Virus record (IMG/VR): IMGVR_UViG_3300021466_000176
Direction: 5' to 3' (one strand)
Length of the DNA stretch: 64,000 nt
DNA from: a virus
Positions 39,952 through 58,250 of the stretch are shown here, piece by piece (position 1 is the first letter of the stretch; each line of letters begins with the position of its first letter). Under the pieces are notes generated by a model. The model worked only from the letters and a program-made list of their open reading frames with translations, was not told the DNA's origin and did no database searches. The position numbers and the translations under genes were made by a program.

Positions 39952-42612
39952 TTACGAGGAACGCTCGTTGTACCGCTCGCTCGCCGACTGAGGGGCGAGG
40001 TCCAGATCGACCTCACCCTCCTCGTCCACGGACGCATCGAATCGCTGTCCCTCGGGACTCATGCCGCCGAAGTCGGTATCGACCGTGAACTCCTCTCCAT
40101 CCGAGTTCTCGCGGTTTTCCTCACTGTCTTCCATGACATCGGAGTGGATTTCCTCAAGCCGATCGAGGTCTCCAGTAAGCGTATCCATCGTAACAGCGGG
40201 GGACTCGGAATTCGCAACGATGTCCTCCTTTAGCTCAGTCCGGCGCTTTTCCTTCTCGCGCTCGCTGAGAGCTTCATTCGCATCTGCTCGGACCTCGGAG
40301 CGGAACTCCTCGTCAGACTTGAGTTCCTCTCGCACCTGCTGTGTGATCGTATCTACGTCTACTTCCACGTTCTCTCTGTCCTCGTCGTTCTCGCCGCTTT
40401 CGTCGTCTTCGTCACCGTCGTCCTCACCGTCTTCGTCGTCCTCACCACCGCCGTCACCGTCTTCGTCGTCCTCGTCGGCTTCCGCATTGACCCGCTCGGC
40501 CATGTCGTGGAAGCCTTTCAGACAGTCCGTACCAGCGAGCTTGACCATATTCTCGCGGTCGAAATCATGGTCCTCTACCAGCGTATTGATTCGCTGCTCG
40601 TCTTCGTCGGAAATATCGAGTTCTTCTTCGTTACTCATGTTTTGATCGGTTTCCTCTGACTCGTTTTTATGATCGGTGCCGTCAGCATCACCCTCAGCGG
40701 ATTCCGCCGCTGCTCGTTGATTGTCATCGCGGCCCATCGTTACAGCAACCGTCGCCGCAATGTTCTGTGCCATCCGATCGACGAACCCATCGGATCGGTC
40801 CGCGCCTTTCGTGGGATCTTCAGCCGATTCGAGATCATCAACCGATGCCGTCGATGGAGAGCCTTTCTGCGTTGCTTCTCCATCCTCAACTTCGAATTCA
40901 GCAACGAGGACTTCTCCCTCGTTACCGGCTTCGGAGTTGATGATCTTACCGACTTTTCCATCCCACTTTACCCAATCACCGGATTCCATGTTGGAAATTA
41001 ATCTCACATTGTCTCTCTTTTCGCTATCTACATCACGATCGAACTCGCTTTCGAGCAAATCATACGCCCTGGACCGGGCGGACGCGAGCTGTGAAGACCC
41101 TATATCCGCCGAGGCTCCTCGACCGCCGATGACCGCATCGAGGGCACCTTCGTATAGCTTTCCATTGGATGGGTTCACAACTGGGAAGAATTTCACTTCA
41201 CGTATCGTCCCTGCATCGGGGTTTCCGAGCAACGAGTGATCAGCAATCTCGCTCCGTTGGGCCGGGGTGAGGTCATCGACGCTGTTGATCGAGTCGGCGT
41301 TCCCGCCGGGTTTCAGATCGAGTGCTGAGACGAAATCGTCCAACCCCGTGGAGACATCCCCCCACGAGTCCGAAGACGTTCCGTTGAATTTTGGCTTACG
41401 CGCCTCTTTCCGAACCGAGTTCTGTCTCCACTCTAACTCATTCACATCTACCCAACTCGGGATTTTATGCAACCGCGAATCAGCGTTTACATAGAGTTCG
41501 TTAGCGTTCGATCGAGACTTCGGATGGTCATCGGGCAGTAAATCTTCGTCTGACGTATAGTTCGGGTTCTCGGGTTTCCCGTTCCGAAGCAAGTACAGAA
41601 ACGCGTTAACACGAGCCATTGCCCACTGGCCCCGAGATACGCCCGGACGGTGGGAACTCGAATACGCTCCCGCACCACGACGATATACCTTCTTTAGTGT
41701 CCTACTTCCAGCAGGAATAGAATACGTCGAATCATCACCATCGGCCTTCTCCTTGTGTTCCTCAGCCTTATTTTTCAGTGCTTTCTCAGTCTTCTTACTG
41801 AAATCGATGTCGGCTTCAGTGGTTTCGGATGCTGAACCGTCCTTGTTAGTATCGGACCCTTTCTTTTGGTCTTCTTTGGGAGCTTTCGTCGTCGCTTCAT
41901 CGGATGGGTCCGCGTCCACACGCATCCCGCCGTCCGTCAATACAGGCTGTGAACTGGGGTTAGGCATATTCGAACTCGACCGGAGGAGTTTCTCCATCGG
42001 ACCGCCGATTGCACACCCCTCCTCGATCGTACACCGTGGGGTTCCGGAGAGGATCATCGCAACGTGATCTCCATCTACACCCTTCTGAACACCATCCGCG
42101 CGCACGCCCTCGTATTCCGAAGAATCGATTTTCGGTGCGGAGTCAATATCGTATCCCGGGGATACCGACACTGGATCACCGTTTTCGATCTTCTGAAGCG
42201 CAGTAGCGTATCGAGGAAGCCGACTCCGGATCTCGGTATCCGCCTGGAGCCATGCCTGTCCAACCAGAACATCATCGTTCGGTCCCTCCATCCCCGAAGA
42301 TCGGAATTCGCCGACCACCTTACGGTTGAGAACGTCTGGATCGTTTATAGAGCCGAACGTCACTCCGGTCGGGGATGATTCCGATGGAACGAGTGGATGT
42401 TCGATGTTGATCGGAGTGCCGTCGAACGACGACGCCGCCCGTTCTAACTCCTCTTTAGGGAGGAACTCGGTTTCGTTCGGGAGATCCTGATCAGAATAAT
42501 CGTACACCCTTTCGCGTGCTATGGGGGAGGGTACAACCAAATACTCCTGTCCGTCTTCGGTTACCCTCCTGTATTCCGAGGAATTCAGTCTCCCTATTTG
42601 TAACTGTCTCAT
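39952..42612 (-). CDS. Prohead protease (DUF2213-like) with accessory domains and C-terminal scaffold
   Basis: FDGTPINIEHP, VSVSPGY, DHVAMI..PRC motifs in first ~200 aa; internal globular inserts; acidic coiled C-terminus. Confidence 0.85.
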   Translation of the reverse strand: MRQLQIGRLNSSEYRRVTEDGQEYLVVPSPIARERVYDYSDQDLPNETEFLPKEELERAASSFDGTPINIEHPLVPSESSPTGVTFGSINDPDVLNRKVVGEFRSSGMEGPNDDVLVGQAWLQADTEIRSRLPRYATALQKIENGDPVSVSPGYDIDSAPKIDSSEYEGVRADGVQKGVDGDHVAMILSGTPRCTIEEGCAIGGPMEKLLRSSSNMPNPSSQPVLTDGGMRVDADPSDEATTKAPKEDQKKGSDTNKDGSASETTEADIDFSKKTEKALKNKAEEHKEKADGDDSTYSIPAGSRTLKKVYRRGAGAYSSSHRPGVSRGQWAMARVNAFLYLLRNGKPENPNYTSDEDLLPDDHPKSRSNANELYVNADSRLHKIPSWVDVNELEWRQNSVRKEARKPKFNGTSSDSWGDVSTGLDDFVSALDLKPGGNADSINSVDDLTPAQRSEIADHSLLGNPDAGTIREVKFFPVVNPSNGKLYEGALDAVIGGRGASADIGSSQLASARSRAYDLLESEFDRDVDSEKRDNVRLISNMESGDWVKWDGKVGKIINSEAGNEGEVLVAEFEVEDGEATQKGSPSTASVDDLESAEDPTKGADRSDGFVDRMAQNIAATVAVTMGRDDNQRAAAESAEGDADGTDHKNESEETDQNMSNEEELDISDEDEQRINTLVEDHDFDRENMVKLAGTDCLKGFHDMAERVNAEADEDDEDGDGGGEDDEDGEDDGDEDDESGENDEDRENVEVDVDTITQQVREELKSDEEFRSEVRADANEALSEREKEKRRTELKEDIVANSESPAVTMDTLTGDLDRLEEIHSDVMEDSEENRENSDGEEFTVDTDFGGMSPEGQRFDASVDEEGEVDLDLAPQSASERYNERSS

Positions 42613-42664: not shown

Positions 42665-43474
42665 CTACACGGGAACGAATAGGCATCTACACCGGGGGTG
42701 GGTCTCCCCGGGTATCACACCGACAGCCTCTTCGAGCGAGTACCTATTTCCCTCTAAACCCCGGCAGAGAGGGCAGACTCGCTCATCTCCTGCTGTCGTA
42801 AACTCGACTTCCGGATCGACGCCGACCTCTTCGACACCCGCCGACTCGTACCGATTCAGTGCTGCATTGTTCGCCGCTTCAACGGTTCGAGTATGAGAAA
42901 CCGCTTCCGAGCGGGTCTGTCCGACCGCATCGATTCGATCGTTGATTGATTCGGCAATCTGGCGGCGTGAGGGACGGCGACCCTGTAATGCCTCGTCTAT
43001 CTCGCGCAGCACTTCCGTAACTGAAGCGTTGGCAACTGCCTGCAAATCCTGATAGACAGCCGTATACGATCGTCCGAGTTCTCGCCGGTGTTTTTCCCTC
43101 GTGATTGCAGCTTCGGGCGATACATCCGGGACCGTGTATTTCTCCGAATTACGGAGGTGATAATCAGCCCGCTTTAAACCGGCTTCATAGGCATCACGGA
43201 CGTTAGATGCCGTCCAATGGCGTCCGGATGCAACCGAGCGTCTCCGAGTAGTCTCGATAACCTCCTCATCTATTTTCCGTCGGATCCAGTTCTCCAGTGC
43301 GAACCGTACTTCCGAATTATCCCAATTATCGGGCGTAAGTGGAGAAATTCGAAACCGATCTCCATCCTGTATCTCGCTTCGTACTGCTCCCCGGACCCTC
43401 CGCCATCGCCTGTTGAGATTCCCCACCCACCGTTCCCTACGAGTCTTCGTCCTCGTCGGGTCGTGGGAAGTCAT
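42665..43474 (-). CDS. Minor head morphogenesis protein (MuF/SPP1 gp7-like)
   Basis: TAGDERVCPLCRGLEG and HPRCRC motifs. Confidence 0.9.
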   Translation of the reverse strand: MTSHDPTRTKTRRERWVGNLNRRWRRVRGAVRSEIQDGDRFRISPLTPDNWDNSEVRFALENWIRRKIDEEVIETTRRRSVASGRHWTASNVRDAYEAGLKRADYHLRNSEKYTVPDVSPEAAITREKHRRELGRSYTAVYQDLQAVANASVTEVLREIDEALQGRRPSRRQIAESINDRIDAVGQTRSEAVSHTRTVEAANNAALNRYESAGVEEVGVDPEVEFTTAGDERVCPLCRGLEGNRYSLEEAVGVIPGETHPRCRCLFVPV

Positions 43475-43493: not shown

Positions 43494-44765
43494 TTAGCAT
43501 GAATGGTCTTCTTCGTCTTGGTTGCCCTGATCTCCCTGGTCGCCTTGATCGCCCTCGTCGTCGGTCGGGATGCGTGTCACCGCATCGGCCGTCGAAACAT
43601 CCGTGCCATTGAGCAGGACAACTACACGTTCGATATCATCAGCCGGTCCGCGTAATTCAAGCGAAGTGAGATGGGGATCGAACTTACTGTCTATCAGGAA
43701 GTCGTCTTGTCCGCCTTCGACGAGACCTTCCCACGTCCGCTTGTCGATCCGCTCTTCGCCATCGCCGACATTAGCGTCGTCGCCGGGATCGACCCGTGAG
43801 GCGTGCCCGACGAGTTCGTACTCGACAGTATCGGCGACCTTGCTGCCGTCGATAACGAGCCGATGGATATAATCCGGTCTGCTCGTCCCACCCGATCCGC
43901 TTGCAGCAGCTTCAGGACTAAGTGGACATCCACCGGGCGGGGAATAATCAGCATCAGGATCTTCTTCTACGTCGTCGTAATTAATCTCGCCGCCGGGGTA
44001 CTCCTGTAGCGGGCCGCCGGTATACAGAAGGTTCCGAAGTGTAACCTCACTTGTCGCGCCCTCGTTCTCGTAGTAGTAGCGGGAGTTGACGGCTGCTACC
44101 ATCCCTTCGCCGTCGATCCGAACTCGGCAATCCTCGTACTCGGGAGACCCCGAATACGCCCAGATGCCCCGGTCAGTGTGGTTCCGTGAGGTGTAGCCTC
44201 CTCCGTCCGAAGCATCAACCAGTGGGTTGTCCTCGTGTTCGTCATCGATTACACAGCCAATCGCCTTTGAACTGGGAGTGCCTAATCGAATACCGGAACT
44301 CGTTCCATTATAGCCGAAACAATCGCGGAGAATCACAGTTCCGTTTGCTGAGGCGTTCTTGTCGATCAATCGATTCCCCGGGCTTGAACAATACCAGAGG
44401 TTATCAGCGAAGTTCCCGACAGTGCAATTTTCGATCTCAACGGTGCCACCGTGATGTCGGGACGTGAAGATGCCGGTTTGCCCATCTTCTCCACCATCCC
44501 CGAGGTAGACGTTCCGGACGTAGGCTGTCGCGTCCTCGTCCTCGATTTTGATATGAAAGCATGACTCCTTCTTTGCCGGAAGAGAGCCCCGAACGCCTAC
44601 GTTCTCGATCGTGTTTGGCGAATGGAGGAGGATGTCGTATTTCGCTCCTGGCGCAGTGATGTCGATGAGCGTGTCGGTTAAATCGCCGTCCTGATCGGTG
44701 TCGTGTCGGAAGGTTTCGCCGGCCGATACTTCGATCTCGGTGTCGTAATCAGTATTAGTTGACAT
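43494..44765 (-). CDS. Beta-helix protein with C-terminal beta-sandwich module
   Basis: IENVGVRG, VRNVYLGDG, FADNLWYCSSPG, GIRLG, RGIWAY, PPGGCPLSPEAAASG; paralog of 25550..26509. Confidence 0.75.
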   Translation of the reverse strand: MSTNTDYDTEIEVSAGETFRHDTDQDGDLTDTLIDITAPGAKYDILLHSPNTIENVGVRGSLPAKKESCFHIKIEDEDATAYVRNVYLGDGGEDGQTGIFTSRHHGGTVEIENCTVGNFADNLWYCSSPGNRLIDKNASANGTVILRDCFGYNGTSSGIRLGTPSSKAIGCVIDDEHEDNPLVDASDGGGYTSRNHTDRGIWAYSGSPEYEDCRVRIDGEGMVAAVNSRYYYENEGATSEVTLRNLLYTGGPLQEYPGGEINYDDVEEDPDADYSPPGGCPLSPEAAASGSGGTSRPDYIHRLVIDGSKVADTVEYELVGHASRVDPGDDANVGDGEERIDKRTWEGLVEGGQDDFLIDSKFDPHLTSLELRGPADDIERVVVLLNGTDVSTADAVTRIPTDDEGDQGDQGDQGNQDEEDHSC

Positions 44766-44896
44766 TTTCTGATGTTATAGTGTGTAAATTTTTGTAATGT
44801 TCTCATCGTGGAAGGTAGCGTCGATCCGGCCGTTGACCGCGACTCCGCGCTACCGCAGAGTATCACCCTCAAGGCGAGCGAGTAGGGCGGGGTAGT

Positions 44897-47350
44897 TCAC
44901 GAGTAGTAAATATCTGAGGCTTCGCCAATATTGTCGTAGAACTCCTCGTAATAGTATGCCAGTTCGTCATCAACGTCGCCCGGATCAGCGTTTTCACCAA
45001 TCGCACAATCGACGAGTTCGAGATTATGAAACCCCATCTCTCGCACGCGGCCGTCCGGATCGGGCCAGTCGATGTTGATCTCGCTGCTGCTGTCGTACTC
45101 CATGAGATGCCGGCGCGTCCATTCGCCTTTCAGCTCGGGGTAATCCTTGTCCTCGTAACCAGCAGAGTTTACTTGTACAAGAGGTGAGTCCGGGTCAGGA
45201 TAGCGATCGTCCATGTCGGGCTCCTCACCCCACGGGATACAAAGTTTGGTTGCCCGCCAACCGGGGTAACTCCGTCCACGGAGCCAGAGTCCCGATCCGC
45301 CATAGTCGTTGGGCATGACCGCGCCAATCGCCCCCGCGTGCCAACACACATTGCCTGGGCGATGTGCGTCGATCTTATACCCGCCGGCCGCTCGATGTCC
45401 GATGATGAACCGGGAAGGCGCAATCGCCCCGTTAGTTCCCTGTTCGATTTCGTGGCGGCCGCCGTCGAGGAGGACGCGATTGACATCGGTTTGCCTCCAG
45501 AAGGGCGTCCGAGTTTGCAACTCGTCAAGCGACCAATGATCCGCGTCGGTCCCGTCGATCGGACCCCCTGCTCCAATGCAATACGCAGCCCCCGACGGCC
45601 AGGGAGCATAGCTATCTGTTGCGAGTACGGTCATAGCATCGGCACGATCGGAGATATTGATCATCGAAAAGCCATGTATCTCGCAGTTGACCACCGCTCC
45701 GTAGCGACCGTCGAAGTTACCCTCAACACCGCGCATTTGATAGCGTCCGTCCCGGTTGGGCGGGATGTCGCTATCCGCTCCCGTATAGGGGTATTCATCC
45801 GTTCCGGGGCCTGCGACCTCACAGTTTATGATCGACCAGAACGGTTCGGTAAATTGGATCGCACAGTGGCCCCATTTCCCGTCGTCATCACGATTTATCT
45901 GCCGATCGAAGGATAGACGAGGGTTCTCGCCGTCGTGGATGAAGCCAGCAAGCGTAATCCCGCGCGTATCGATGTGAACGGAGGGTTTGGTATCGCCGGT
46001 CGGCAACTGTACGTTGCCACGGATACCCAACACATCTCTATCGTCGGCGTCATCAATTGCGCTAATGAGATCGTTGATGTCGTCGATCCACATGTCTACA
46101 TCGTCGGTATCGACGGCCAGATCGGACGGAAGCCCGCCGGTACCGAAACTGCACCGTCCATAGGGAAGGTCCATGTCCGATTGAGCATCAGCGTCGACTG
46201 GTAGCGGATCAAAGAACTCGTGGTTGCGCCGCTTGCCATCGACGAGGAGCCGGGTATGGCTATCGCGGTAATCGCCGATAATCTCGCCGTCGCCGCTTCG
46301 GAACAGGTTCGGCTCGCTATCGATATCCGGTCGCTGCCGTCCCTCAGTAATCAGCGAGGGCGAACAGCGGACTTGCATGATCCGTCCTGAATAGACGAAG
46401 GAATCGGTATTATCAGGCCAGACGCTCGATATGGCAACGCCGTACTGTCCCACATTATACGTATCGTCGCTGCCGACGGGTTCGAGACGGCCGCTTGCCA
46501 TCAACCGATAGTCGCGCCGCCGCTCGGCCGCCTCATCGACAGCGATAGTAACTTCTCCATCGGCCCAGTCAGGCAGGTCAGCGTCCGAGCCACCATCTGA
46601 TCCGCTATCCGAACCACCGTCCGAACCAGACTCGGAATCGGACTCATCACCGTTCGCAGGCCGATCCTCCTCGGCGGGTGTTTCTCGCCCACCTAACGGC
46701 GACTCAGTGAGTCGCGGCGGCTCATAGGGTAGTTTATTCAACTGGAAGTTGAGCCGGTCGTGGCGGCCGTGTACCCATGTTATTTCGCCGATTAGTCCGA
46801 AGGCGTCATCATTATTCGCGGGTATCGAGCCGACGACCATCTCGCCCTGATCAAGCGGGATGATTGCGTCGAACCGGTCCGATTTGTCCTTTCTGACGAA
46901 TTCGCCGTCAGTGGCCGCCGAATAATAGATGGGCGATTCATCCTCTCCCTGCCAGTCATCCCCGTAAACGTAGAAACGCCGGGGCTCGTCAGGGCTGCCG
47001 AAGTCCGGCTGCTGACCATCGTCTCTCTCATCGTCCTCGGAGCTATCGGGAAGCAAATCCTCTCGATTGACTTCCTCGCCGTCAGCAAGGAGTGTGAGGG
47101 CGTCCTCGGCGTCGTTCGTAATAGCGAGTCGGACTAACTTCCCATCGACGGCATAGCGATCGAACAGGTCGGTCTCGTCGATCCCACCCCCGGCTATATG
47201 CGGCGTCTCGCTATCGTAGTAATCGCCAGTTCGGACACCGGTCGTTCCTGAAACAGGAACGATCGTGCCACCATCATCAGCGTCGACTTCGAGTTCGTAT
47301 TCGATCCTTGAACCGTCAGTTCGGAGTTCGAGTTCGTATTCGTCGGGCAT
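44897..47350 (-). CDS. Large multidomain protein: repeated beta modules + C-terminal beta-helix-like domain
   Basis: Three repeats ending in D.Y/F..G.I/L; then DLISAIDDA cap and NCEVAGP/NCEIHGF. First ATG after the upstream stop is 47350; the frame is open further upstream. Confidence 0.7.
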   Translation of the reverse strand: MPDEYELELRTDGSRIEYELEVDADDGGTIVPVSGTTGVRTGDYYDSETPHIAGGGIDETDLFDRYAVDGKLVRLAITNDAEDALTLLADGEEVNREDLLPDSSEDDERDDGQQPDFGSPDEPRRFYVYGDDWQGEDESPIYYSAATDGEFVRKDKSDRFDAIIPLDQGEMVVGSIPANNDDAFGLIGEITWVHGRHDRLNFQLNKLPYEPPRLTESPLGGRETPAEEDRPANGDESDSESGSDGGSDSGSDGGSDADLPDWADGEVTIAVDEAAERRRDYRLMASGRLEPVGSDDTYNVGQYGVAISSVWPDNTDSFVYSGRIMQVRCSPSLITEGRQRPDIDSEPNLFRSGDGEIIGDYRDSHTRLLVDGKRRNHEFFDPLPVDADAQSDMDLPYGRCSFGTGGLPSDLAVDTDDVDMWIDDINDLISAIDDADDRDVLGIRGNVQLPTGDTKPSVHIDTRGITLAGFIHDGENPRLSFDRQINRDDDGKWGHCAIQFTEPFWSIINCEVAGPGTDEYPYTGADSDIPPNRDGRYQMRGVEGNFDGRYGAVVNCEIHGFSMINISDRADAMTVLATDSYAPWPSGAAYCIGAGGPIDGTDADHWSLDELQTRTPFWRQTDVNRVLLDGGRHEIEQGTNGAIAPSRFIIGHRAAGGYKIDAHRPGNVCWHAGAIGAVMPNDYGGSGLWLRGRSYPGWRATKLCIPWGEEPDMDDRYPDPDSPLVQVNSAGYEDKDYPELKGEWTRRHLMEYDSSSEINIDWPDPDGRVREMGFHNLELVDCAIGENADPGDVDDELAYYYEEFYDNIGEASDIYYS

Positions 47351-47483
47351 CGTCGGAGTTGTCTCATCGCCGTCACTGCTGTCGTTGTCGCTGTCACCGT
47401 CCGTATCGCTCAGAGGTTCGTCCGGATGGTCGTTGAGGATCTTTGCGAGGTCGTCGATACTTGCCCGGATGTCAAGAAGCAGG

Positions 47484-48233
47484 TCACACTGCTCTGAGGT
47501 CGTCGAACCGCAACGTTGCGCGATAGCCACCGAAGCCGAACACGCCACTGCTATAGGACGTATCGGTCACCGAGACAGTACCCATCGATGTCCCGGTCTC
47601 GTCGAAAAGTTCAGCTTCAATTGTATCGGCAGCCGTCGAAGGCGTATCGAGCCGGAGTTCTGCTTCGTGGTAGGCACCCGTCGTGAAAGACCCAATATCG
47701 GAAGTTTTCGTCGTTGTTCGAGTGCCTCCGGAGACGACGTGCAAACGAATTTCTGGCCCGCTGGACGACAGCTCGAACATGTAACCATCAAAATTATCAT
47801 ACGTCTTCGTCGCAGCCGACGGTACCAGAACCGGTACCTTCAGATACCCGCCGCCGGAATACGTTTTATCGTCCCAAACCGCCACGCGATAGGTCTGGCC
47901 GCGCTCCATCGTCGGCGCAGGATGGGAGTTCTCATCGGCAAATTGGAGCCGGTCGGAAGCCGAACCGGGAGCGTATTCCAGTACGTTCGACCCACGATTC
48001 GAATCACTAATAATACTGAACACTGCCGGATCATCCCCAACGTAGTCGTCAGAAAGCGTATTCGACTCGAAATCCTCAGCGGCTGTGGTCGTCAGGTTGA
48101 TCGCCGGGATACCTCCGAGTATCCCAACTGCTACGCTCGACGCATCTGTCGAGTACTGGTAGGCCCCGAGATCGTCGCCCGGTCCTGAGCCGCCCCCCTG
48201 ATACTGGTAGGCTCCGAGATCGTTGCCCGCCAT
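47484..48233 (-). CDS. Lectin-like beta-sandwich protein with N-terminal DLGAYQY repeats
   Basis: Two DLGAYQY; EDFES..YSSGVFGFGG..RFDDL resembles domains of 13443..15611. Confidence 0.65.
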   Translation of the reverse strand: MAGNDLGAYQYQGGGSGPGDDLGAYQYSTDASSVAVGILGGIPAINLTTTAAEDFESNTLSDDYVGDDPAVFSIISDSNRGSNVLEYAPGSASDRLQFADENSHPAPTMERGQTYRVAVWDDKTYSGGGYLKVPVLVPSAATKTYDNFDGYMFELSSSGPEIRLHVVSGGTRTTTKTSDIGSFTTGAYHEAELRLDTPSTAADTIEAELFDETGTSMGTVSVTDTSYSSGVFGFGGYRATLRFDDLRAV

Positions 48234-48234
48234 T

Positions 48235-49428
48235 TTAACTCACCGACTGGCCGGCATCAATCATGGGCGATCCGCTTGCGAGGCGAAGGAATTCCCCGGT
48301 TACCCGGTTAAAAGCTGTCCCAACCGCCGTATCGACGAACCAGGAGTCTTGAACATCACTCGCCGCCACTTGCCAACTGTTCGTCTGTCCTGTTACAGCC
48401 GATAGCTCGCTGCCTGACTGATTCCCGATGTTATCGTAGAACGAGGTATCAGAATTCCCCGAATTAAGGTGGAACGAGTGGCCTGGGTTGACATAGCCGG
48501 CCCGACCGCTTTTTTGTCCGTTGTAGATGCACGTATTGTTATATATCTCATAACCGCCACCGTCCGAGCGGTTGTAGATTCCGGGGCCGCCATTGCCCCA
48601 GGAAACGTTGTCGTAACACTCGATGTTTTTCGCTACATCATCGTCGTAGCCGAGTTTGATCCCCGTCGAAGATGGGATTGTGTCCCCTTCGGGGAACCTC
48701 GAACCGTCGGCTTGCATCCCGTTACCCCAGACGAGATTATTTCTAAATGTCAATCCATCCGACGCTATGGCGTCGACGCCATCGTCTGAGTTGTGATGGA
48801 GTGCGCAGTGTTCAACGAGGAGGTCATTGTAATAGGGGTTGTTTGCTCCCCCAGCGCCGATACCGTCAGCGTCACCCCCAATCGTACTTCCCGTGTCGTT
48901 CGCGTCGGGACCGAAGTTCATCCACGATTCGACGTATCGAACCACTCCGCCTGATCCCGTTGACCTAAGATGGATACCAGACCCACCGCAATGATGGATG
49001 TTACAGTCCGTGATCGACCCACCAGTACCGAGTCCTACCGAGTCGCCAGATGTGATGCCCGGGCCGAGTGCACCGTCGATTTCGAGGCCAGTGATAGTCA
49101 TGCCTGTTGACGAACCGTTGAAGTGCAGCGCACCATCCCCCGATGAATCGGTTCCCGAGCCGGTCGTCGTTAGTGTGGGTGCTTCGCCGGGTTCAGCTTT
49201 GAACGTGAGATTGTTAACATCATAATACCCCGACCTGTTAGCTTCGTCGAGGACGATAGCCGATCCGTCGCCTTCCAAGAAGATGACCGTATCCCCATCG
49301 GATACGGGGTCGATCTGTGACCCGTAGGGATAGGTCGGCTCCCAGTTCTCGTAGGGGTTCGATTTTGTTCCGTCACCGTTACTGTTCGATCCATTCGGCG
49401 AGACGTATTTCGTTGCCATGATTATCAC
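48235..49428 (-). CDS. Polysaccharide lyase family 9-like beta-helix protein
   Basis: YVSPNGSNSNGDGTKSNPY start, GDADGIG, HHNSDDGVD, GIKLG: pattern of PL9 Ca-binding Asp residues and catalytic Lys. Confidence 0.75.
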   Translation of the reverse strand: MIIMATKYVSPNGSNSNGDGTKSNPYENWEPTYPYGSQIDPVSDGDTVIFLEGDGSAIVLDEANRSGYYDVNNLTFKAEPGEAPTLTTTGSGTDSSGDGALHFNGSSTGMTITGLEIDGALGPGITSGDSVGLGTGGSITDCNIHHCGGSGIHLRSTGSGGVVRYVESWMNFGPDANDTGSTIGGDADGIGAGGANNPYYNDLLVEHCALHHNSDDGVDAIASDGLTFRNNLVWGNGMQADGSRFPEGDTIPSSTGIKLGYDDDVAKNIECYDNVSWGNGGPGIYNRSDGGGYEIYNNTCIYNGQKSGRAGYVNPGHSFHLNSGNSDTSFYDNIGNQSGSELSAVTGQTNSWQVAASDVQDSWFVDTAVGTAFNRVTGEFLRLASGSPMIDAGQSVS

Positions 49429-49433
49429 CCCTA

Positions 49434-51587
49434 TTAGCTAATCGTGTACGAGCCGTTCGTCGTGGTATCCTGGGAACTGCTGGTGCCGGTATTCGAGTCT
49501 ACGCCCCCGTTATCGACGATAATGGCAACCATCTTCGTCTCACCCGATGAGTTCGCAAACGAGGCCAGTGGAGATCCTGACCCGCTTGCACTCGACGTGG
49601 TGCCATCGCCCTGAAGGATTTTTTCGCCCTGAACGGCCGTTCCGGAGTCATTAATCAAAATTGAAAGATCGAGTCCCGTCGGTGGTGGATCGGGGAGATC
49701 GCTTGAGTTTTTGATTCCGAGGGCTGCTTCGGAGACAGCGAGCGTCTGTCCGTCCGGAACTGGGAGAGCTATGATCTGACCGGCCGTTCCTGCGGCGATT
49801 GTTCCAGATTCCGAAAAACGCGGCTCGCCCTCGTTATCAAGAGACCAGGTTACATTCCCCGATCCGTCAGCAGAGGGGACGGTACCGGAGGTCGCTGATC
49901 CGCTCGAAAACTGATTGAGGTCTGTGCTCGCCGGATCGAGTTGGGTGTCCGTATCCGTTGCGAGAGTTTCAACATCGTAGCTATTCCCCGAAGAGGCGTC
50001 AGTTATGGACCCGGCTTCGAGATTTTTCAGGCCAAGGCCGAGACCGTCGCCATCACGACCGAACGTCGCTTTTGCAGTACCACCTGGATAATACGCCCGG
50101 ATCTCATACCCATTTTTCAATGCAACGGCATTGAAAATCTGTGTGTTCGACGCCCCGGCGTCAGCGACGACCATGTTCGTCGGGTGTTCATAGAAGCCAC
50201 CGTGAAGTGTCGGACTGTTGAAGAAACCATCGAAGTCCGGCCCGAACCGGAATGAACTCGTGTTCGAAGCGTGCTCTTCAGTCTTCCCGCCCGAAATTGT
50301 CAAGCCCCACATCCGAGTATCAGCGTTGAACTCGAACCCTACTGCCCCATCATCGAACAGGAATATCTGTGGAGACTCGAAGAGACAATACTGCATGTTG
50401 CCTCGCATCCGGATTCCGGCCTCATCAGTATCGAGCGAACACGGACCGATGTAATTCCCCTGGAACGAATCGGTCCCGCCCGAAGTAGAGTCAGGATTGT
50501 ACGTCGCGCCGACGAAATCGATACAGTAATCTGACCGGACTGTTCCGCCGCTCGGAAGCAAGCTATTCGTCTCGGACCAACGATCCTGATTCCGTAACTC
50601 GATCCCTTTGACAGGTGCATTAGTACCGCCGTCAAACGAAACGTTGTACGGGTCGATGATACAGCCGCCGATATCCAAGAGCTGACACCATCCTTGTGCA
50701 TCACCCGTTGCGAACCACTGCCCGCCAGTGAGGACGAACGGTGCGGGGTCAGATTTCTTGTATTCCCCGCCAGTAGTAACGATAAGCGGCCATCCCGATC
50801 CTGGGTATTCGATTTCGACGTTATGGTCCACCTCGATATGGACACCAGCTTTGAAATCGGACTTCGGGTCGATAACGAGGTCTCCTGTCCATTGCCAAGC
50901 CGTACCATCATCCTTGGGAGTGATTCGAACACGACCCTGATCGCCAGCGTTTGCACTGAGGTAATCTAAAGCGTTGGAAAGTTTTGCCGATAAGTCCCCA
51001 CCGCTAAACTCACGTGCATAAGCCTCGTTGTTGACACTGGTTGGAGAGATGGCAGTTCCATCACTGCCGCTACCCAGTGACCCGCCGATCGGTCCTGTAT
51101 CCGCGACGAGACTGTCGTCTTGATCAACGATCTGAAATTCGCCAGTCCCGCTCTCACGCGTAACGAAGACTGCTGCTGTCGTATCGACTTTCGTTTGAGT
51201 TATCGAAAGAGTCGATCCCGACTGACTCACATCAACAGTGTAGTCTCCAGCATCGAGCGGGACGCGTTCGGTGAGGAATGAAACAGTCGTGCTACCACCG
51301 GAAGCCACTGACCCACTCGACTTCGTTTGTGGATTCGAAATAGTCGGGAACGAGACAGCGGGGTCGGATGTACTCGACCCGTCGTGAAGCGCAACTGTAA
51401 TGTCCTCAGTAGCTGCACTCGACGTATTGTTCTCTATTGTTACTTCGATGTACTCGTTAATATCCCGGTCATATCCTGCGACAAAACTGGTTGACTTGGG
51501 CGTTGAAGTCTCTACTACCGGGTCCGGGGCTAACTCAGGTGGCGTCCCGATAATACTCTCATCGAGTTTATCTCGTCTTCCACTCAT
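49434..51587 (-). CDS. Fibre/spike-like protein with central beta-helix
   Basis: LSNALDYL cap, beta-helix-like repeats, SGSATSGTVPSADGSGNVTW motif shared with tail fibres. Confidence 0.65.
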   Translation of the reverse strand: MSGRRDKLDESIIGTPPELAPDPVVETSTPKSTSFVAGYDRDINEYIEVTIENNTSSAATEDITVALHDGSSTSDPAVSFPTISNPQTKSSGSVASGGSTTVSFLTERVPLDAGDYTVDVSQSGSTLSITQTKVDTTAAVFVTRESGTGEFQIVDQDDSLVADTGPIGGSLGSGSDGTAISPTSVNNEAYAREFSGGDLSAKLSNALDYLSANAGDQGRVRITPKDDGTAWQWTGDLVIDPKSDFKAGVHIEVDHNVEIEYPGSGWPLIVTTGGEYKKSDPAPFVLTGGQWFATGDAQGWCQLLDIGGCIIDPYNVSFDGGTNAPVKGIELRNQDRWSETNSLLPSGGTVRSDYCIDFVGATYNPDSTSGGTDSFQGNYIGPCSLDTDEAGIRMRGNMQYCLFESPQIFLFDDGAVGFEFNADTRMWGLTISGGKTEEHASNTSSFRFGPDFDGFFNSPTLHGGFYEHPTNMVVADAGASNTQIFNAVALKNGYEIRAYYPGGTAKATFGRDGDGLGLGLKNLEAGSITDASSGNSYDVETLATDTDTQLDPASTDLNQFSSGSATSGTVPSADGSGNVTWSLDNEGEPRFSESGTIAAGTAGQIIALPVPDGQTLAVSEAALGIKNSSDLPDPPPTGLDLSILINDSGTAVQGEKILQGDGTTSSASGSGSPLASFANSSGETKMVAIIVDNGGVDSNTGTSSSQDTTTNGSYTIS

Positions 51588-51888: not shown

Positions 51889-52152
51889 TTATTCGTTGCT
51901 TATCTGAGGGTGTTCGACACCGAATACATCCTTATATATGCTCGCCAGATCCTGCTTATAATTCGCTATCTCGTCCGGCGGCAGGTACTCGAATCCTTCT
52001 TTTATCTCCCGCTTGAGTTCCCTCTCAGTTGCATTGCTCGGATCGAACATATTGTGCATGTAGGGTTTAGCATACTGATACTGAAGCGCACCTCGGCGTT
52101 TCAGATACTCTTCCATGTTCGCCTTCGTCTCCTCGTCTTTTATAAATAACAT
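51889..52152 (-). CDS. Small hypothetical protein
   Basis: ATG 52152 overlaps the portal stop (TAATG). Confidence 0.6.
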   Translation of the reverse strand: MLFIKDEETKANMEEYLKRRGALQYQYAKPYMHNMFDPSNATERELKREIKEGFEYLPPDEIANYKQDLASIYKDVFGVEHPQISNE

Positions 52153-54797
52153 TAGAACTTCCCTCTCCATTTTTCTGTCATTAATACTTCATCTTTAAGC
52201 TTCGAACAGAACTGCCTCGGAGAGCGTATCTCGCCGGACATATCGGCAACACAGGTTCTCCACGTGCCACCAAGTGACGCCCATGCCTGGAGAACGGATT
52301 TCCGATTCCAACCATTTGGTAACCTCTTGAATCCAACGTACGGATCTCCGGCGTTCGCTCGGGGGAGATCCTCAACCGGAACAGTATCCCGATAGGAGTT
52401 TACAGCTCGACTCACCTCATCCGGATCATCGAGGTCATCGACCTGATCGTACCACGAATGGGAGTTCTCACGATCCGAATCAGCGAGGTCCTTCGAATCC
52501 ATATCTTCTTCGCCCTCACTCGTTTTCTTCAGATCGCTCGCACTGACAATCGTGAATCCACCGGACTCTTTCGCAACGACGTAAACCGGGCTGTCCGAGG
52601 AAGCTTCTACTTCCTCGTCGGAGTCGGTAGATGGGTCCTCGAAGTTCGAAGTCATCTTCGCAACGATAACGCCGAACTCCCCATCGACTTCGACCGTCGA
52701 TCCTTCACTATACGAAGCGTTGTAGCGGCTCAATGGGTCCCATGCCCAGTTTCGAAGGCTTATCGTCGCTTTCGATGGACACTGAACTTCATTGCCGTTC
52801 TCGTCTTCAGTTTTCGGACCATCGTCCTCGGATCCTCCCGAGCGCGCGCCACGCATCCGGGAGTTGAACGATATGGTCCGCTTCGCGTCTTTGATGTCCT
52901 TCGCCGTCCACTCGCTTTTGTTCTTCCGAAGCAAACGGAGGTTTCTCTTGATTACAGCATTCGTATCAACGGATGCCTCAGAAGCACACGGATTGTCGGC
53001 CCAATCTTCAAGTTGAGTAGCCGACATATTTGTGTTCTCCCTCCACTTCTCGTACACGTCGTCGAGTTCATCCATCGACGCATCCACGCGACGATAGAGA
53101 TGATAATCCTCGATCGCATCGAACCGTGTCCCATCGTAGCTTCGGTCCGCTTCGGTCGTGTTCATTTCATTTCCTCCTTGAGCACCCTCCGAAAGGCGTG
53201 CCTGCTGTGCTTGAGTTGCTGGATCGGATTCATCGATAGGCCCGGATGATGGGGGGACTTCCTCTTCTACGTTCGGAGCCTCCGAACCCCGCTTTGGGTC
53301 CCATCCGAATATTTCTTTTCGGAATTCGGCCATCGTACCGAGCCGGCTTGCCTGTCCTCCAGTGAGGGACGCAACAGCACTCCCGAACCCGGATGCGATC
53401 TGGGCCATCTCCTTCTTGCTCGGCTCGTCCAGCGAGGACCAGTTAACGGTATATTCGCCGGACTCCGATTCGGGGGCGGAGATGATTCCCGCCCAAACCA
53501 GTTTATCTATCATCGGACGGAGAATCGACGGCTCGACGTAGGTGTTACGACGCCGAGCAATCGTCTGAGACCACATTTTCGAGTCCTCAGTGGTACTACG
53601 TTCTCCAGTCTCGTTCCCTGTGAGAACGCTTTGTGGGATATCGAGTGCGGCGCTGATCGCCTTGTATTGCTGATTCATGTGATCAGCAGGCGAGGAGACG
53701 TTAGGGTCGAGAGGCTCGATGTTACCCGTAGTAGCAATCGTTCTGGAGAAGTTCTCCAGGTGATCCTCTATTTCCTCCTCTATATCCGAAGAGTCTTCGA
53801 ATTGAAGCGTGCGACCGAGAGAGTCCTCCGGCGGCCGTACGACGTAGCCTTGGTATCCTCCTCGCCAATACCCTTCGGCGCTCGCTCCGAGGATCTTATC
53901 AGCATCCACCAGCCTATTGATGATGGGCTGGAAGAACGGAAGGCCCCGCAACGAGTCCATGATAGCCCCCTCGACTACATGAACCGCGCGCGTGTGATGA
54001 ACCGTATTGGAAATCTGCCCGAGTTCCTCAGTCTGGCGGGATACCTCGTAGCTCTGTGGACGACCGTACCGCTCGTCGTTGATGTCTTCGACGATGTTGA
54101 TGTCAGCTTGGGTGTCCGGATAGACCTCGATATAGGTTATCCCTTCGAGCCCATCGGAGGACAAATCGCCCTCGCTGATCTCATCGCTGATATCACCGCC
54201 ATCGCTGAAGCCGAACACCACAACTGCGTATTCCCCAAGCGAAGCGATAATATCAGCGGCGATCATCCGCTGTAAGGGTGGGGATCGGAGGCCGATACCA
54301 GGCCCGGAATTAGTGAAAAACTTCCGCAAGTCGGTCTCGAAATCCGTACTGTTTTCGTTTTCCTTGGGTTGATTTATTTCTTGGATACCGTCTTTGATGA
54401 CAGGAGTTTGTTGCCAGGAATCATCTACGTACTTGTTCAAAATACCGTTTGCGAGTCCCTGTCGGGTGAACCGTCCGAAGTACTGATCGAAATCAAGGTT
54501 CTCGTCGCTTGGATACTTGAGCGCGGCGTATAGCGTGTCCTGTATCTGATCGGAATTCAGCGACGAGGCGAGCCCGCTCCGCCCACCAGCGAACGGATTG
54601 TCGCTGGCCGTTTGATTGAACCTGCTGCCGTCGTTCGATTCCGGACCAAGCGTCCCACCGGCCATCCGGTTCACACGAGCGAAGATATCCTCCTCAGTCG
54701 TGACGTGAGACCCCTCGAATCCAGTAGCATATGGTGACCGACGCCTGGAGCCACCGCTATTTGCGCGGCTCTCGTTGTCTTCGCTCTCACCAGTCAT
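52152..54797 (-). CDS. Portal protein (DUF1073-like) with C-terminal accessory domains
   Basis: VHHTRAVH, LRGLPFFQP, LGASAEGYWRG, ISAALDIPQSVLTG, LRPMIDKL motifs; about 330-aa C-terminal extension. ATG 54797 chosen. Confidence 0.9.
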   Translation of the reverse strand: MTGESEDNESRANSGGSRRRSPYATGFEGSHVTTEEDIFARVNRMAGGTLGPESNDGSRFNQTASDNPFAGGRSGLASSLNSDQIQDTLYAALKYPSDENLDFDQYFGRFTRQGLANGILNKYVDDSWQQTPVIKDGIQEINQPKENENSTDFETDLRKFFTNSGPGIGLRSPPLQRMIAADIIASLGEYAVVVFGFSDGGDISDEISEGDLSSDGLEGITYIEVYPDTQADINIVEDINDERYGRPQSYEVSRQTEELGQISNTVHHTRAVHVVEGAIMDSLRGLPFFQPIINRLVDADKILGASAEGYWRGGYQGYVVRPPEDSLGRTLQFEDSSDIEEEIEDHLENFSRTIATTGNIEPLDPNVSSPADHMNQQYKAISAALDIPQSVLTGNETGERSTTEDSKMWSQTIARRRNTYVEPSILRPMIDKLVWAGIISAPESESGEYTVNWSSLDEPSKKEMAQIASGFGSAVASLTGGQASRLGTMAEFRKEIFGWDPKRGSEAPNVEEEVPPSSGPIDESDPATQAQQARLSEGAQGGNEMNTTEADRSYDGTRFDAIEDYHLYRRVDASMDELDDVYEKWRENTNMSATQLEDWADNPCASEASVDTNAVIKRNLRLLRKNKSEWTAKDIKDAKRTISFNSRMRGARSGGSEDDGPKTEDENGNEVQCPSKATISLRNWAWDPLSRYNASYSEGSTVEVDGEFGVIVAKMTSNFEDPSTDSDEEVEASSDSPVYVVAKESGGFTIVSASDLKKTSEGEEDMDSKDLADSDRENSHSWYDQVDDLDDPDEVSRAVNSYRDTVPVEDLPRANAGDPYVGFKRLPNGWNRKSVLQAWASLGGTWRTCVADMSGEIRSPRQFCSKLKDEVLMTEKWRGKF

Positions 54798-54874
54798 CGG
54801 CAAAGGGGGAAGGGGGTGGGTTGGGTCCGGCCTACAGCATCGCTTGGCCGGTGTTTCACGCTTTATTCTTTCTG

Positions 54875-55261: not shown

Positions 55262-55990
55262 TTACGCTCCAACGAGCAGCCGAAGAACCCGGACGAACTG
55301 GTCTACAGCTCCGGTCTCGACGAGACCTAAACCCAAAGCCTCGTTAATCGCGGAGAACATCGTGCCGAGAGCGAGACCGACGCCGGTCTGGACCGTCATC
55401 TGCGTGGGGTTCAATCCGAACCTCGTCCGAGCTTTCTTGCGCTTTCTTTTGAGTATCCTCTTCAGCACGGGTCTTGAGTTGAGGTACTTCGAACTGCTGC
55501 CAAGAGCGAGAATCACAACAGCGAAAATTCCGGTTATTACGGTCCACAATGCAGGAGAGGCACTATCGAGACCCGGCCACGCCCCGATCGCGGCTGTGAA
55601 ACCCCCAATTGTCATGATACGTTCCTCTGGGTCGTTCCACTTCCGGATGGCCCACGAACGCAATCCCGCAACGGCAAGCCCACTTCCGGACGAGGGTACC
55701 GGCCGAGGAACACCGATCAAGGCTTCTACCCTCGCACAAACCTTCTTCGTCGTCCGCTTACTGTTCCACTCGGCTTCGGACATGTGACCCGTCTCCCCGG
55801 TGCGATTATTTGCGTATCCGACATGCCCCCGTAGCGATCTCAGCCTACTATCCGATGGGGATTTCGGGTTCGTCTCGTCCCATCCACAGATACACCGATA
55901 CCGGCTCTCATCGTCCTCATTCGAGAACTCGAAATCCGATCTTTCATCCGGGTCCGTTCGTATCCACGCGGACTTGTTTTCAACTTTCAT
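55262..55990 (-). CDS. Membrane protein with N-terminal zinc-finger-like motif
   Basis: YRCICG...LRGHVG...GH followed by 2-3 hydrophobic helices and a basic KRILKRKRKK loop. Confidence 0.65.
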   Translation of the reverse strand: MKVENKSAWIRTDPDERSDFEFSNEDDESRYRCICGWDETNPKSPSDSRLRSLRGHVGYANNRTGETGHMSEAEWNSKRTTKKVCARVEALIGVPRPVPSSGSGLAVAGLRSWAIRKWNDPEERIMTIGGFTAAIGAWPGLDSASPALWTVITGIFAVVILALGSSSKYLNSRPVLKRILKRKRKKARTRFGLNPTQMTVQTGVGLALGTMFSAINEALGLGLVETGAVDQFVRVLRLLVGA

Positions 55991-55993
55991 CGC

Positions 55994-57547
55994 TTACCAT
56001 GTAGACGGAACTCGTTGAATACTGCTGGTATCAACCCCACGTAATGCCAATTCTACTGAGTCTAACTGATCATCATGCCCAGAAGGAAAGTTGAGCCATT
56101 CGTGCTCGAACCCCTCCCAATCGTGCTTACCGTAATCATCAACGTTAGGTCCTTTCTCAAGCAGTTTAACCTCACCGCTCTCGAATTTCCCGGACATCGA
56201 AATAAGCCGACGCCGCTTATTACCGGATGAAGTCGTCGCCCGCATCGGCATCCCCTTGTTCTTCGCTACCTGGACCAGCCAGTGTTGAGCTTGGACTGTC
56301 TCAGCAAGGACATCCGAAACAGGATACCCCGAAACAACGGATTTCACCCAATCGATTCCAGCATCGATGGACATACCACGCTGGCGTTGTACGTCTACAA
56401 CGACGGTCTGGTTAAATTTCGGCGAGTGTGCGAGAACAGCACACGCCCACCAGTCAGTGTTCCCGGTTACCGCTTCCTCGGGATCCTCAGTGATAGCCGG
56501 ATCGACGCCCGCGACCCACACACACTTTCCGGGATCCTCCGGGAGTCGATCCGTATAGTTCAGCATCGACTTCGAGAGGATTTTGCCTGACATCGCCTTC
56601 GGGTCGTTCTGACGCTCACGTCTCCAGACAGCAGTCCCCTCGTTTGCTCCGAATCCCGAAATCAGATCATACAGGAGCTTATTGAGCGGCCATCGATCCT
56701 GCCATAGAACGTCTACGTTCCGATGGGGGTGAATATGGGACGCATCCGGGACCGTCTCTCCAGCGGGTATTTCAGAAAAGGCGACCCCAGGATACCGATT
56801 TCCAGCATCAGTAGTGACCGAGAATTCCCTGTTCTCTACGACGGACCAATCCGAAATAGCCGGTTCCACGATCGTCTTCCATGCCGGACCGTTCACGAGA
56901 TGGTGGTAGAGGTCCTCTTCGTGCTTCCGAGTACCCAAAACGACATAGGTAGTCTCTCCACCAGCACCGAGGTTCTGGTAATCCAAAAATTTCGTCCAGG
57001 ATTTCTCACGTCTGGATTCGGTTCGTTGTGTTGACCACGATACAACGTCATCGAAGATGATGACATCGAAGTGACCTCCGGTAACTCCCGAGTCATAGCC
57101 AGCGGCGAGAATCGTCGGAACATCCGACGCCTCCGACCGTTCAAGCGTGATCGAAGATCGATTGTCGTATTTGACTTCTTGACCGAACTGATCGGCGAGT
57201 CTATTTATATGAGATTTCGTCTCCGACAGCTTGCGGCGTGCCTGACTCGTCGTCTCCGACATTATAAGTATGCGCGCGTTCGGGTCATTCAACGCATACC
57301 AGGCTGGACACACTGCCGTTCCAGCTACGCTCTTCCCATGCTCGCGCGGGAGGATGTAACACAATCGCTTCGGCGAACTGAAATACGGATCGACGGACTC
57401 GTAAAAATCTTCGTAAATACGCGCGAGATGTGGCGGTATGCTCGAATCGAAGTCGAAACACTCGTGTGCGAAGACGCCCGGATGGACAAGTGGCTGTTCC
57501 GAAAGTCGCTGATAGTTCTCATGGTGTGTATCGGCTGTCTTATTCAT
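55994..57547 (-). CDS. terL: Terminase large subunit
   Basis: Walker A PREHGKS, Walker B VIIFDD, GTR coupling motif, nuclease GVDPA and HDDQLDS. Confidence 0.95.
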   Translation of the reverse strand: MNKTADTHHENYQRLSEQPLVHPGVFAHECFDFDSSIPPHLARIYEDFYESVDPYFSSPKRLCYILPREHGKSVAGTAVCPAWYALNDPNARILIMSETTSQARRKLSETKSHINRLADQFGQEVKYDNRSSITLERSEASDVPTILAAGYDSGVTGGHFDVIIFDDVVSWSTQRTESRREKSWTKFLDYQNLGAGGETTYVVLGTRKHEEDLYHHLVNGPAWKTIVEPAISDWSVVENREFSVTTDAGNRYPGVAFSEIPAGETVPDASHIHPHRNVDVLWQDRWPLNKLLYDLISGFGANEGTAVWRRERQNDPKAMSGKILSKSMLNYTDRLPEDPGKCVWVAGVDPAITEDPEEAVTGNTDWWACAVLAHSPKFNQTVVVDVQRQRGMSIDAGIDWVKSVVSGYPVSDVLAETVQAQHWLVQVAKNKGMPMRATTSSGNKRRRLISMSGKFESGEVKLLEKGPNVDDYGKHDWEGFEHEWLNFPSGHDDQLDSVELALRGVDTSSIQRVPSTW

Positions 57548-58250
57548 TTGAATCGTCTTCTCTTTCGTCTCCGTCGTCCTCTACCGGAGTTGACTCGACA
57601 TCGATCGGTTCATCGGACGATCGGGCACCGTCCTCGCCGGAATCGCCAAACATACTACTCAGGAATTCCTTGTCCTCATCGCTAATCTCTTCATCTACAG
57701 TGTGAGTGACCTCGTGATCCTGGGGCATCTGATTTGCCGCCTCGGAAAAGTCCCCAGGATACTTCATCTCGGCCATCCGCTCCCACATCCTCCAATCATC
57801 AGCACCCGCTTCTTCCATCTTATCGAGGACGTGTTGTTTCGCTGCTACACGAGCATCGGAAACTCGTACGAAGAAATCAAAATACGGTCCGCGCTCCTCC
57901 GGAGGTCCGTTCGCCTCTTCTTTCCCTTTATTAAACCAGTAATCGAAGCTCGACCTGCTGATTCCGGCTCTATCAACTGCCATCTGGACAGTCCCGCCGG
58001 ATCGAATAGTGGACTCTATCGCAGCTACCTTGTGGGCGGTGATAGTCGATGTCCCGTGAGTGGAGGAGTAATCGACCGTGAGTTCCGGCTCTTGTCGGTG
58101 TTCGTAACACGGGCCGTAATTCGTTCCTTCGACGCCTTTCCCCGCAGGTTGTCGGCACTTCCTCCCATCAGTTTTCGGTTGCCCACAAAGCCCGGCACTC
58201 GGAGTTTCAAGTGCTCCCGTCTCCCGTTCAGTTTCGTCCTCATACTCCAT
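57540..58250 (-). CDS. terS: Terminase small subunit
   Basis: CGQPKTDGRKCRQPAG..CYEH motif and HTH (AVDRAGISRSSFDYW); overlaps terL start. Confidence 0.8.
   Translation of the reverse strand: MEYEDETERETGALETPSAGLCGQPKTDGRKCRQPAGKGVEGTNYGPCYEHRQEPELTVDYSSTHGTSTITAHKVAAIESTIRSGGTVQMAVDRAGISRSSFDYWFNKGKEEANGPPEERGPYFDFFVRVSDARVAAKQHVLDKMEEAGADDWRMWERMAEMKYPGDFSEAANQMPQDHEVTHTVDEEISDEDKEFLSSMFGDSGEDGARSSDEPIDVESTPVEDDGDEREDDSNE

Follow-up and report, generated by a model that had tools for sequence, protein, structure and literature searches.

A 64,000-nucleotide stretch of viral DNA (IMG/VR record IMGVR_UViG_3300021466_000176), referred to here as the window, encodes a portal protein with a long C-terminal extension, and it raises the question of what such an extension does in the virus particle. 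The window belongs to a virus of salt-loving archaea whose whole record is 134,075 bp. In a preliminary description of the same DNA, the interval 52152..53160 was described as a string of domains placed after the portal core, and the string was read as a slot for loading effectors into the capsid. The string itself is borne out. A PF06381 portal core is followed by three conserved segments, and the stretches quoted for them lie where they had been placed, with segment 1 at 52740..53075, segment 2 at 52533..52727 and segment 3 at 52155..52358. Tentatively, and at somewhat less than even chances, the extension is interpreted here as an internal head protein that is tethered to the portal and touches the packaged DNA.

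The portal gene occupies 52152..54803 on the minus strand, with 883 codons counted from a TTG at 54803 and the stop codon at 52152-52154. The likely start is an ATG at 54797, which gives a protein of 881 amino acids (aa); a database copy (P0002, 881 aa, 100% identical) begins there, two codons after the TTG. The portal core covers residues 93-505 (53289..54527, minus strand) and is defined by PF06381 and PHROG 146. PF06381 (Phage_portal_3, DUF1073-type) matches residues 179-471 with 109.1 bits against a cut-off of 33.8 bits (E 2.6e-31) and spans model positions 55-349 of 357, so that by Pfam membership the protein is a portal. The alignment to PHROG 146, annotated 'portal', covers residues 93-563 (E 1e-49). 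Among 50,697 phage records, the nearest cultured portals are those of Hardycor1, Humcor1 and HJTV-4, which are 28-31% identical over residues 75-528 only; no record covers 80% or more of the whole protein. Because the nearest portals align to the core alone, the last 320 residues are regarded as an extension of it.

This extension consists of three folded modules on low-complexity linkers, all encoded on the minus strand. Linker 1 (residues 506-576; 53076..53288) is a 71-residue acidic stretch recognized by its composition. It matches no Pfam family, and the PHROG 146 alignment reaches on into it. Segment 1 (residues 577-688) is a divergent DUF3140 domain, modelled as a compact helical bundle with a covarying pair of cysteines. 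Segment 2 (residues 693-757) is predicted to be a Tudor or Hva1-like five-stranded barrel. It is followed by linker 2 (residues 758-815; 52359..52532), which is highly acidic and modelled with low confidence, and by segment 3 (residues 816-883), a basic helical end domain with two conserved cysteines and a terminal W-R-G-K/R-F motif. Judged by their sequences, all three segments are conserved domains and not chance similarities. This includes the third, which had been proposed as a domain without a name; it is real and conserved, and no family matches it.

The proposal that segment 1 resembles DUF3140 is supported, with caveats. The window copy alone scores 14.9-19.0 bits against PF11338 (DUF3140; E 0.0019-0.036, model positions 2-75 of 92), below the cut-off of 25 bits, and for this reason it is termed DUF3140-like, a divergent viral subfamily. 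An alignment of 28 relatives with the window copy (A1) has 18 invariant columns. When its profile was compared by hhalign with a bona fide DUF3140 protein from a Neorhizobium plasmid (140.2 bits to the Pfam model), the two matched at 97.9% (E 4.9e-13, 99 columns), in an alignment that takes in the C-terminal S-L-x-N-W motif. The PF11338 cut-off is reached or exceeded by 9 of the 28 related proteins and by 11 of 41 complete host open reading frames (ORFs) obtained from the best 80 segment 1 loci of IMG/VR. All 30 Atlas neighbours of segment 1 are DUF3140 clusters (top score 0.90). The profile match, the relatives above the Pfam cut-off and the Atlas clusters together identify segment 1 as a divergent viral branch of DUF3140.

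AlphaFold2 run on A1 gives the compact helical bundle with a mean predicted local distance difference test (pLDDT) score of 90.3 and a predicted template modelling (pTM) score of 0.83. In a comparison of this fold with 48,161 chains (VIA-align), the best match was the C-terminal domain of mimivirus R596, with Z 6.2 and a root-mean-square deviation (rmsd) of 6.1 A; this is within noise for helical proteins and is taken as no match. Sequence searches of the PDB with profiles of segment 1 and of segments 2 and 3 gave nothing below E 0.5. The cysteine pair of segment 1 (C616 and C677 of the window ORF) covaries, both residues being present in 219 of 221 distinct sequences, neither in two, and a single one in none. 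Both are missing from the one bona fide cellular DUF3140 protein examined; the pair therefore characterizes the viral subfamily and could serve structure alone.

For segment 2, the earlier comparison with the Tudor/DUF2945 family also holds up in qualified form. The window's segment has no match to PF11160 (Hva1_TUDOR/DUF2945) at E <= 10 when searched alone, nor at E <= 1 when searched together with segment 3. Weak matches, the best at E 0.0034 and under the cut-off, occur in six of ten aligned relatives, and hhalign matches the segment 2 profile to eight PF11160-matched instances, five of them above the 24.1-bit cut-off, at 94.7% (E 6.4e-8, 54 columns). The AlphaFold2 model of segment 2, linker 2 and segment 3 has a mean pLDDT of 72.3. 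Within it, segment 2 forms the five-stranded barrel (block-mean pLDDT 78-92), linker 2 is poorly defined, and segment 3 forms three to four helices (block-mean pLDDT 69-85, model residues 131-180). By VIA-align the barrel resembles Tudor, PWWP, chromo, KOW and UvrD/PcrA Tudor domains (Z 6-7.8, rmsd 1.1-3 A, 45-60 residues), with the matches tied and none above Z 8. The best of them is a Tudor domain (Z 7.8, rmsd 2.2 A, 53 aligned residues). One PWWP match is a structure solved with single-stranded DNA, and another match is Cryptococcus neoformans CNAG_02591, which we take to be Hva1 (Z 6.5, rmsd 2.6 A, 61 aligned). Profile homology and fold thus both support, with these caveats, a Tudor/Hva1-like barrel as the probable identity of segment 2. 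A similarity of 32 residues of this segment to the Spi protease inhibitor family I69 (15.9-19.6 bits, sub-threshold) was put down to chance, since it falls within the Tudor-like barrel and is absent from relatives.

Segment 3 has no family and no PDB relative by sequence, and its Atlas neighbours are only unnamed viral and bacterial clusters scoring below 0.9. A Foldseek search with the model of segments 2 and 3 gave no row at E <= 0.001, and both fold-search lists for this model were filled by matches to segment 2. The isoelectric point (pI) of segment 3 is 8.8-9.7 in 6 of 10 members; segment 2 and linker 2 have values of about 4.05-4.3. Two distant copies, P0185 and P0187, lose both cysteines together, and a third, P0184, keeps both.

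Segments 2 and 3 are found together in many proteins. A HMMER search with their joint profile against 1.84 billion cluster representatives gave 294 at E <= 0.001 and 165 at 1e-10. Among the best 150 of the 294, from which lengths and domain order were counted, 93 proteins are at most 330 aa long and 32 are of 601-900 aa; of the 146 that bear segment 3, 132 have its end no more than 10 aa from the C-terminus. In representatives longer than 900 aa, segment 3 is internal in 8 of 9. All 14 long proteins examined end no more than 4 aa after the pair, and none of them carries segment 1. The portals with the pair at their end belong to either of two Pfam portal models, PF04860 or PF06381. For example, two PBSX-type portals (P0003 and P0011) end in segments 2 and 3, with a segment 3 that is 67% identical to that of the window.

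A profile scan of IMG/VR for the pair found 13 loci, consisting of four portal C-termini (proteins of about 820 aa), eight free genes (218-253 aa) and one stretch resembling segment 3 near the start of an ORF. This last ORF (L094:4833-8156, plus strand) encodes 1108 aa without any Pfam family; the stretch spans its residues 57-121, with 46% identity across 65 residues. Six of the seven free genes examined follow a homologue of the HGTV-1-type portal-MuF gene at a distance of 30-770 nt; the eighth locus (L087) looks like a duplicate of another (L086) and was left out of this count. Cultured haloarchaeal viruses have both arrangements. HGTV-1 gp8, annotated as a 'hypothetical protein', is a free gene for segments 2 and 3 directly after gp7 (annotated portal plus Mu F), HATV-3 gp12 is a PF06381 portal that terminates in the pair, and HHTV-1 gp12 has the pair near its end. 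The PF06381 core of the window's portal has no similarity to gp7 of HGTV-1 (KC292026; L093/L095), and the gp8-like tail is the only part shared.

Segment 1 is also present in 7 of the best 150 representatives, the window's protein included. The full order of segments 1, 2 and 3 recurs as a free protein in P0269 (346 aa) and in the window's architecture in P0270 (819 aa). Since the three segments are found elsewhere both free and fused, the whole extension is regarded as one recurrent cassette, and the window has its portal-fused form. Within this cassette, segments 2 and 3 are, on sequence evidence, one conserved unit that is fused to the portal or encoded beside it, and not variable cargo.

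Segment 1 moves more freely than this unit. It has been found on portals of three families, at the junction of portal and MuF, in prohead proteases, N-terminal to fusions of protease and capsid protein, and free. A scan of IMG/VR with the single sequence found nothing; patterns derived from the profile succeeded, and relatives are encoded in at least 544 IMG/VR stretches. A word-index search with the extension gave 54 proteins, 51 of which carry a copy of segment 1 at 45-58% identity. In the window's own virus record it is present as a single copy. PF04860 portals make up 16 of the 41 complete host ORFs, and in these the segment lies between portal and MuF in nine and after the portal, without MuF, in seven (at the protein end in six of the seven). 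The other host ORFs are mostly long proteins with DUF5824, DUF3721, DUF7282 or Hva1_TUDOR, or with no recognised partner. A Pfam scan of 28 segment 1 proteins recognised a head anchor in 16, comprising portals (PF04860, PF06074, PF06381), prohead proteases (S78, DUF2213, XkdF-type) and two proteins in which segment 1, protease and capsid protein follow one another in this order. In cultured viruses it occurs in eight haloarchaeal records, and only within 'prohead protease' genes. When 185,579 species genomes were scanned with a strict pattern, five loci were obtained, all in metagenome-assembled genomes (MAGs) of diverse bacteria and archaea. One of these is a Methanosarcinaceae MAG; in none of 301 genomes sampled from its phylum did PF11338 exceed the cut-off. 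A slot with swappable domains is thus supported only in part, since segment 1 sits on many carriers and segments 2 and 3 keep a fixed position as one unit.

These carriers indicate where the cassette should be. In solved portals the C-terminal end is directed into the capsid, and the interior of the procapsid also contains prohead proteases and the N-terminal parts of capsid proteins. MuF proteins are described as head components tied to the portal (Iyer et al. 2017, PMC5512222). Because every recognised carrier of segment 1, and the fixed partner of segments 2 and 3, is a head-interior part, the capsid lumen can be well inferred as the location of the cassette, and twelve copies should hang into it. 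In the mechanism proposed, a DUF3140-type helical domain, a Tudor-type barrel and a basic C-terminal domain, fused to the portal as one cassette, would hang in twelve copies from its inner end into the lumen on the 71-residue linker 1. There the cassette would act as a portal-tethered internal head protein touching the packaged DNA.

The contact with DNA is suggested by the basic segment 3 in an otherwise acidic halophile protein, by a barrel class that often binds nucleic acid, by basic copies of DUF3140 outside halophiles, and by the stress and repair neighbourhoods of cellular DUF3140 genes. Free segment 1 proteins have a median pI of 8.46 (n=120). In five plasmid neighbourhoods of cellular DUF3140, a catalase gene adjoins in two, a radical-SAM/UdgX DNA-repair pair follows directly in one, and recX lies about 2 kb away in one; these are stress and DNA-repair settings. 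In the Caballeronia plasmid NZ_CP084253 (L109), the DUF3140 gene is immediately followed by a gene for radical-SAM DNA modification/repair and by one for the uracil-DNA-binding protein UdgX. In the Streptomyces plasmid NZ_CP023408 (L107) it comes after katG and a DUF2945 gene, and in the Neorhizobium plasmid CP030832 (L106) it overlaps a PNPOx-like gene upstream of a catalase. The co-occurrence of DUF3140 and DUF2945 in bacteria, mentioned in the preliminary description, was seen as adjacent genes in the Streptomyces plasmid and not in the other four neighbourhoods. In viruses, both domains occur in one polyprotein in 7 of 30 proteins and in 4 of 41 ORFs.

Several points weigh against this reading. 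With a pI of 5.07, the window's segment 1 is slightly acidic; no family or fold known to bind nucleic acids could be detected in it; and Tudor-type barrels also bind peptides, so the fold of segment 2 does not specify DNA. A recognised anchor is absent in 12 of the 28 scanned segment 1 proteins. A further 495 proteins matching segment 1 are of 57-224 aa, typically 124-125 aa, so that the domain also exists free. The cellular neighbourhoods amount to five loci only. No virion proteomics or structure of any carrier was found in the portions of the literature available, including searches aimed at virion proteomics of HGTV-1, HSTV-2 and HRTV-7.

Three other roles have to be set against contact with packaged DNA. 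It is unlikely that the domains are effectors, which would be loaded by way of the portal, freed by the prohead protease and ejected with the DNA to act in the cell against host defences or in host modification. Fusions of PBECR, 2H phosphoesterase and RelA/SpoT domains to MuF or portal are interpreted in PMC5512222 as packaging for injection. The window encodes a prohead-protease-like protein, each domain is flanked by flexible linkers, and segment 1 is promiscuous on head-interior carriers, occurring also in long multi-domain proteins with DUF5824, DUF3721, DUF7282, DUF4399 and DHH, all of which would suit such cargo. However, searches of Pfam, NCBIfam, PHROGs and PDB sequences, and by fold (with the lists for segments 2 and 3 filled by segment 2), found no enzyme, toxin, antirestriction, anti-defence or known effector domain in the extension. 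The conservation of segments 2 and 3, and their fixed position on or beside the portal, are not expected of cargo in an arms race either. Of the effector slot first proposed, the location in the capsid interior follows from the carriers and the promiscuity fits segment 1; the conserved and fixed unit of segments 2 and 3 does not fit, and no enzyme or known effector fold was found in the extension.

An assembly role is improbable as well. Here the cassette, above all the terminal segment 3, would bind capsid protein, scaffold, MuF or protease and help to nucleate the procapsid on the portal or to recruit internal components, as scaffold C-terminal domains or capsid-targeting domains do. The position of segment 3 at the extreme C-terminus (in the 132 of 146 proteins above) is what such a role would call for, as is strict synteny or fusion with portals of two different Pfam models. 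So is the fact that all recognised carriers are assembly proteins, with nine of the 41 ORFs placing segment 1 between portal and MuF, and prohead proteases having it in their C-terminal part. Against it, DUF3140 and Hva1_TUDOR also exist in cells, where there is no capsid to bind (for instance, as bacterial plasmid genes next to those for catalase and DNA repair), segment 1 also occurs free as a 124-aa protein, and the closest PF06381 portals, of Hardycor1, Humcor1 and HJTV-4, match the portal core only. A stress-protection module of the head with a protective or redox role, in which the cysteines of segments 1 and 3 form disulfides in the extracellular virion, is very unlikely: the cysteines that covary in segment 1 and are lost together in distant copies of segment 3, and the catalase or katG genes near cellular DUF3140 (one beside DUF2945 as well) agree with it, but the cellular protein examined lacks both cysteines, the pair may be purely structural, and the resemblance to R596, a sulfhydryl oxidase, is weak.

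A broader reading, which we regard as unlikely, is that the cassette represents a class of proteins, widespread but so far undescribed, that lie inside the capsids of tailed viruses of archaea and bacteria. Loaded through portal, MuF, protease or capsid protein, they would enter the cell on the genome and protect the DNA on its arrival. Viruses would in this way have taken over a cellular pair for stress or DNA protection, and the orphan families DUF3140 and DUF2945/Hva1 would gain their first functional setting.

The genes around the portal form a head module on the minus strand. The small terminase (57540..58250) and the large terminase (55994..57547) are encoded ahead of the portal, and the interval between large terminase and portal holds a 242-aa ORF (55262..55990) with no PHROG or Pfam family, in which a hydrophobic stretch that could span a membrane is seen by eye. 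After the portal gene come two small ORFs, a beta-helix/baseplate-like block, MuF, a protease-like protein and a capsid candidate. The block (43494..51587, minus strand) is about 8 kb of beta-helix/baseplate-like genes and family-less ORFs (717, 397, 249, 883 and 423 aa), and it splits the portal gene from the MuF, protease and capsid genes, an unusual break in a head module. The MuF-like minor head protein is a separate gene at 42665..43474, and the candidate major capsid protein (PHROG 771, PF19774) is at 38295..39344. A tail sheath gene further along makes the virus a myovirus.

Between MuF and the capsid candidate lies a second protein of interest, a prohead-protease-like polyprotein of 886 aa (39952..42612, minus strand). 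It has DUF2213 (E 4.2e-11) and, at residues 303-357, DUF5824, without segment 1. The equivalent protease polyproteins of relatives also bear segment 1, DUF3721, DUF7282 or Hva1_TUDOR, and with these extra domains the protease polyprotein can be considered a second string of small head-interior domains. In one relative (the contig behind L007/L090), segment 1 comes directly after the DUF5824 region of the protease polyprotein, and that region is 57% identical to the window's protease protein.

DUF3140 was not mentioned in the literature searched, and no virus-related title was found among the DUF2945 matches in the portion of the literature available. The terms 'fused', 'MuF' and 'prohead protease' are absent from the archaeal tailed virus paper, and the available part of the HFTV1 cryo-EM paper has no related domain. 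The carriers described here supply a physical setting, the head interior at the portal, for two widespread families without an assigned function, DUF3140 and DUF2945/Hva1_TUDOR, and for an unnamed third domain. They also show that haloarchaeal tailed viruses share a portal accessory like HGTV-1 gp8, annotated as hypothetical or hidden within 'portal' annotations. Were the domains to bind the DNA or to exit together with it, they would constitute a new type of internal or ejected protein.

Among known systems, parallels are offered by small head-interior proteins such as SPP1 gp7 and Mu F (MuF family) and IPI-III of phage T4, which are held near or through the portal or by a tag processed by the protease, and some of which bind or travel with DNA. 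In the T4-type internal head proteins, a capsid-targeting sequence is removed by the prohead protease, and the proteins are present in high copy in the head and are ejected with the DNA. Neither group has any relation in sequence or fold to the three segments, and the likeness to T4 is used as an analogy only; as for Mu F, the window virus has its own separate MuF gene.

Homologues are found closer by. HGTV-1 gp8 (KC292026; 35% identity over 93% of the query), encoded next to the portal, and the end of the HATV-3 portal gp12 (MZ334527; 29% identity over 95% of the query) correspond to segment 2, linker and segment 3. Unlike the window's protein, both lack segment 1 and are annotated without function, and gp8 is a free gene behind a portal-MuF fusion whose portal is of a different type (PHROG 9232, without a match to any Pfam portal model). 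Haloarchaeal 'prohead protease' proteins (HSTV-2 gp10, HRTV-7 gp10, HCTV-6 and HRTV-2/-11) have a C-terminal DUF3140-type domain like segment 1 (25-28% identity, E 9e-6 to 3e-5) on a head-interior carrier, but that carrier is a protease and not a portal, and the domain is far more divergent than the metagenomic copies at 45-58%. The cellular DUF3140 (PF11338) and Hva1_TUDOR/DUF2945 (PF11160) proteins are homologous to segments 1 and 2; unlike the fused viral forms, they are free proteins of about 75-115 aa, and the DUF3140 protein examined lacks the viral cysteine pair.

The arrangement as a whole resembles that of the effector-fused portal and MuF proteins, described in phages under the name of 'polyvalent proteins' (PMC5512222), which are defined by extra domains on a virion-packaging domain in a head gene module, and the window's portal has just this build. 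These strings of small domains are read there as packaged in the capsid, and MuF, SPP1 gp7 and T4 IPI are named. Their domains are enzymes or known antirestriction modules, in contrast to the window's extension, in which no enzyme was found and two of the three domains are a position-fixed unit. The words 'Tudor' and 'DUF' are absent from that text. Extra domains on portal or MuF are thus of a known kind, and, as far as the accessible text goes, these particular domains are new to it. What is added here is the third domain, the recognition of segments 2 and 3 as a conserved haloarchaeal portal accessory like HGTV-1 gp8, and the fused form of the whole cassette.

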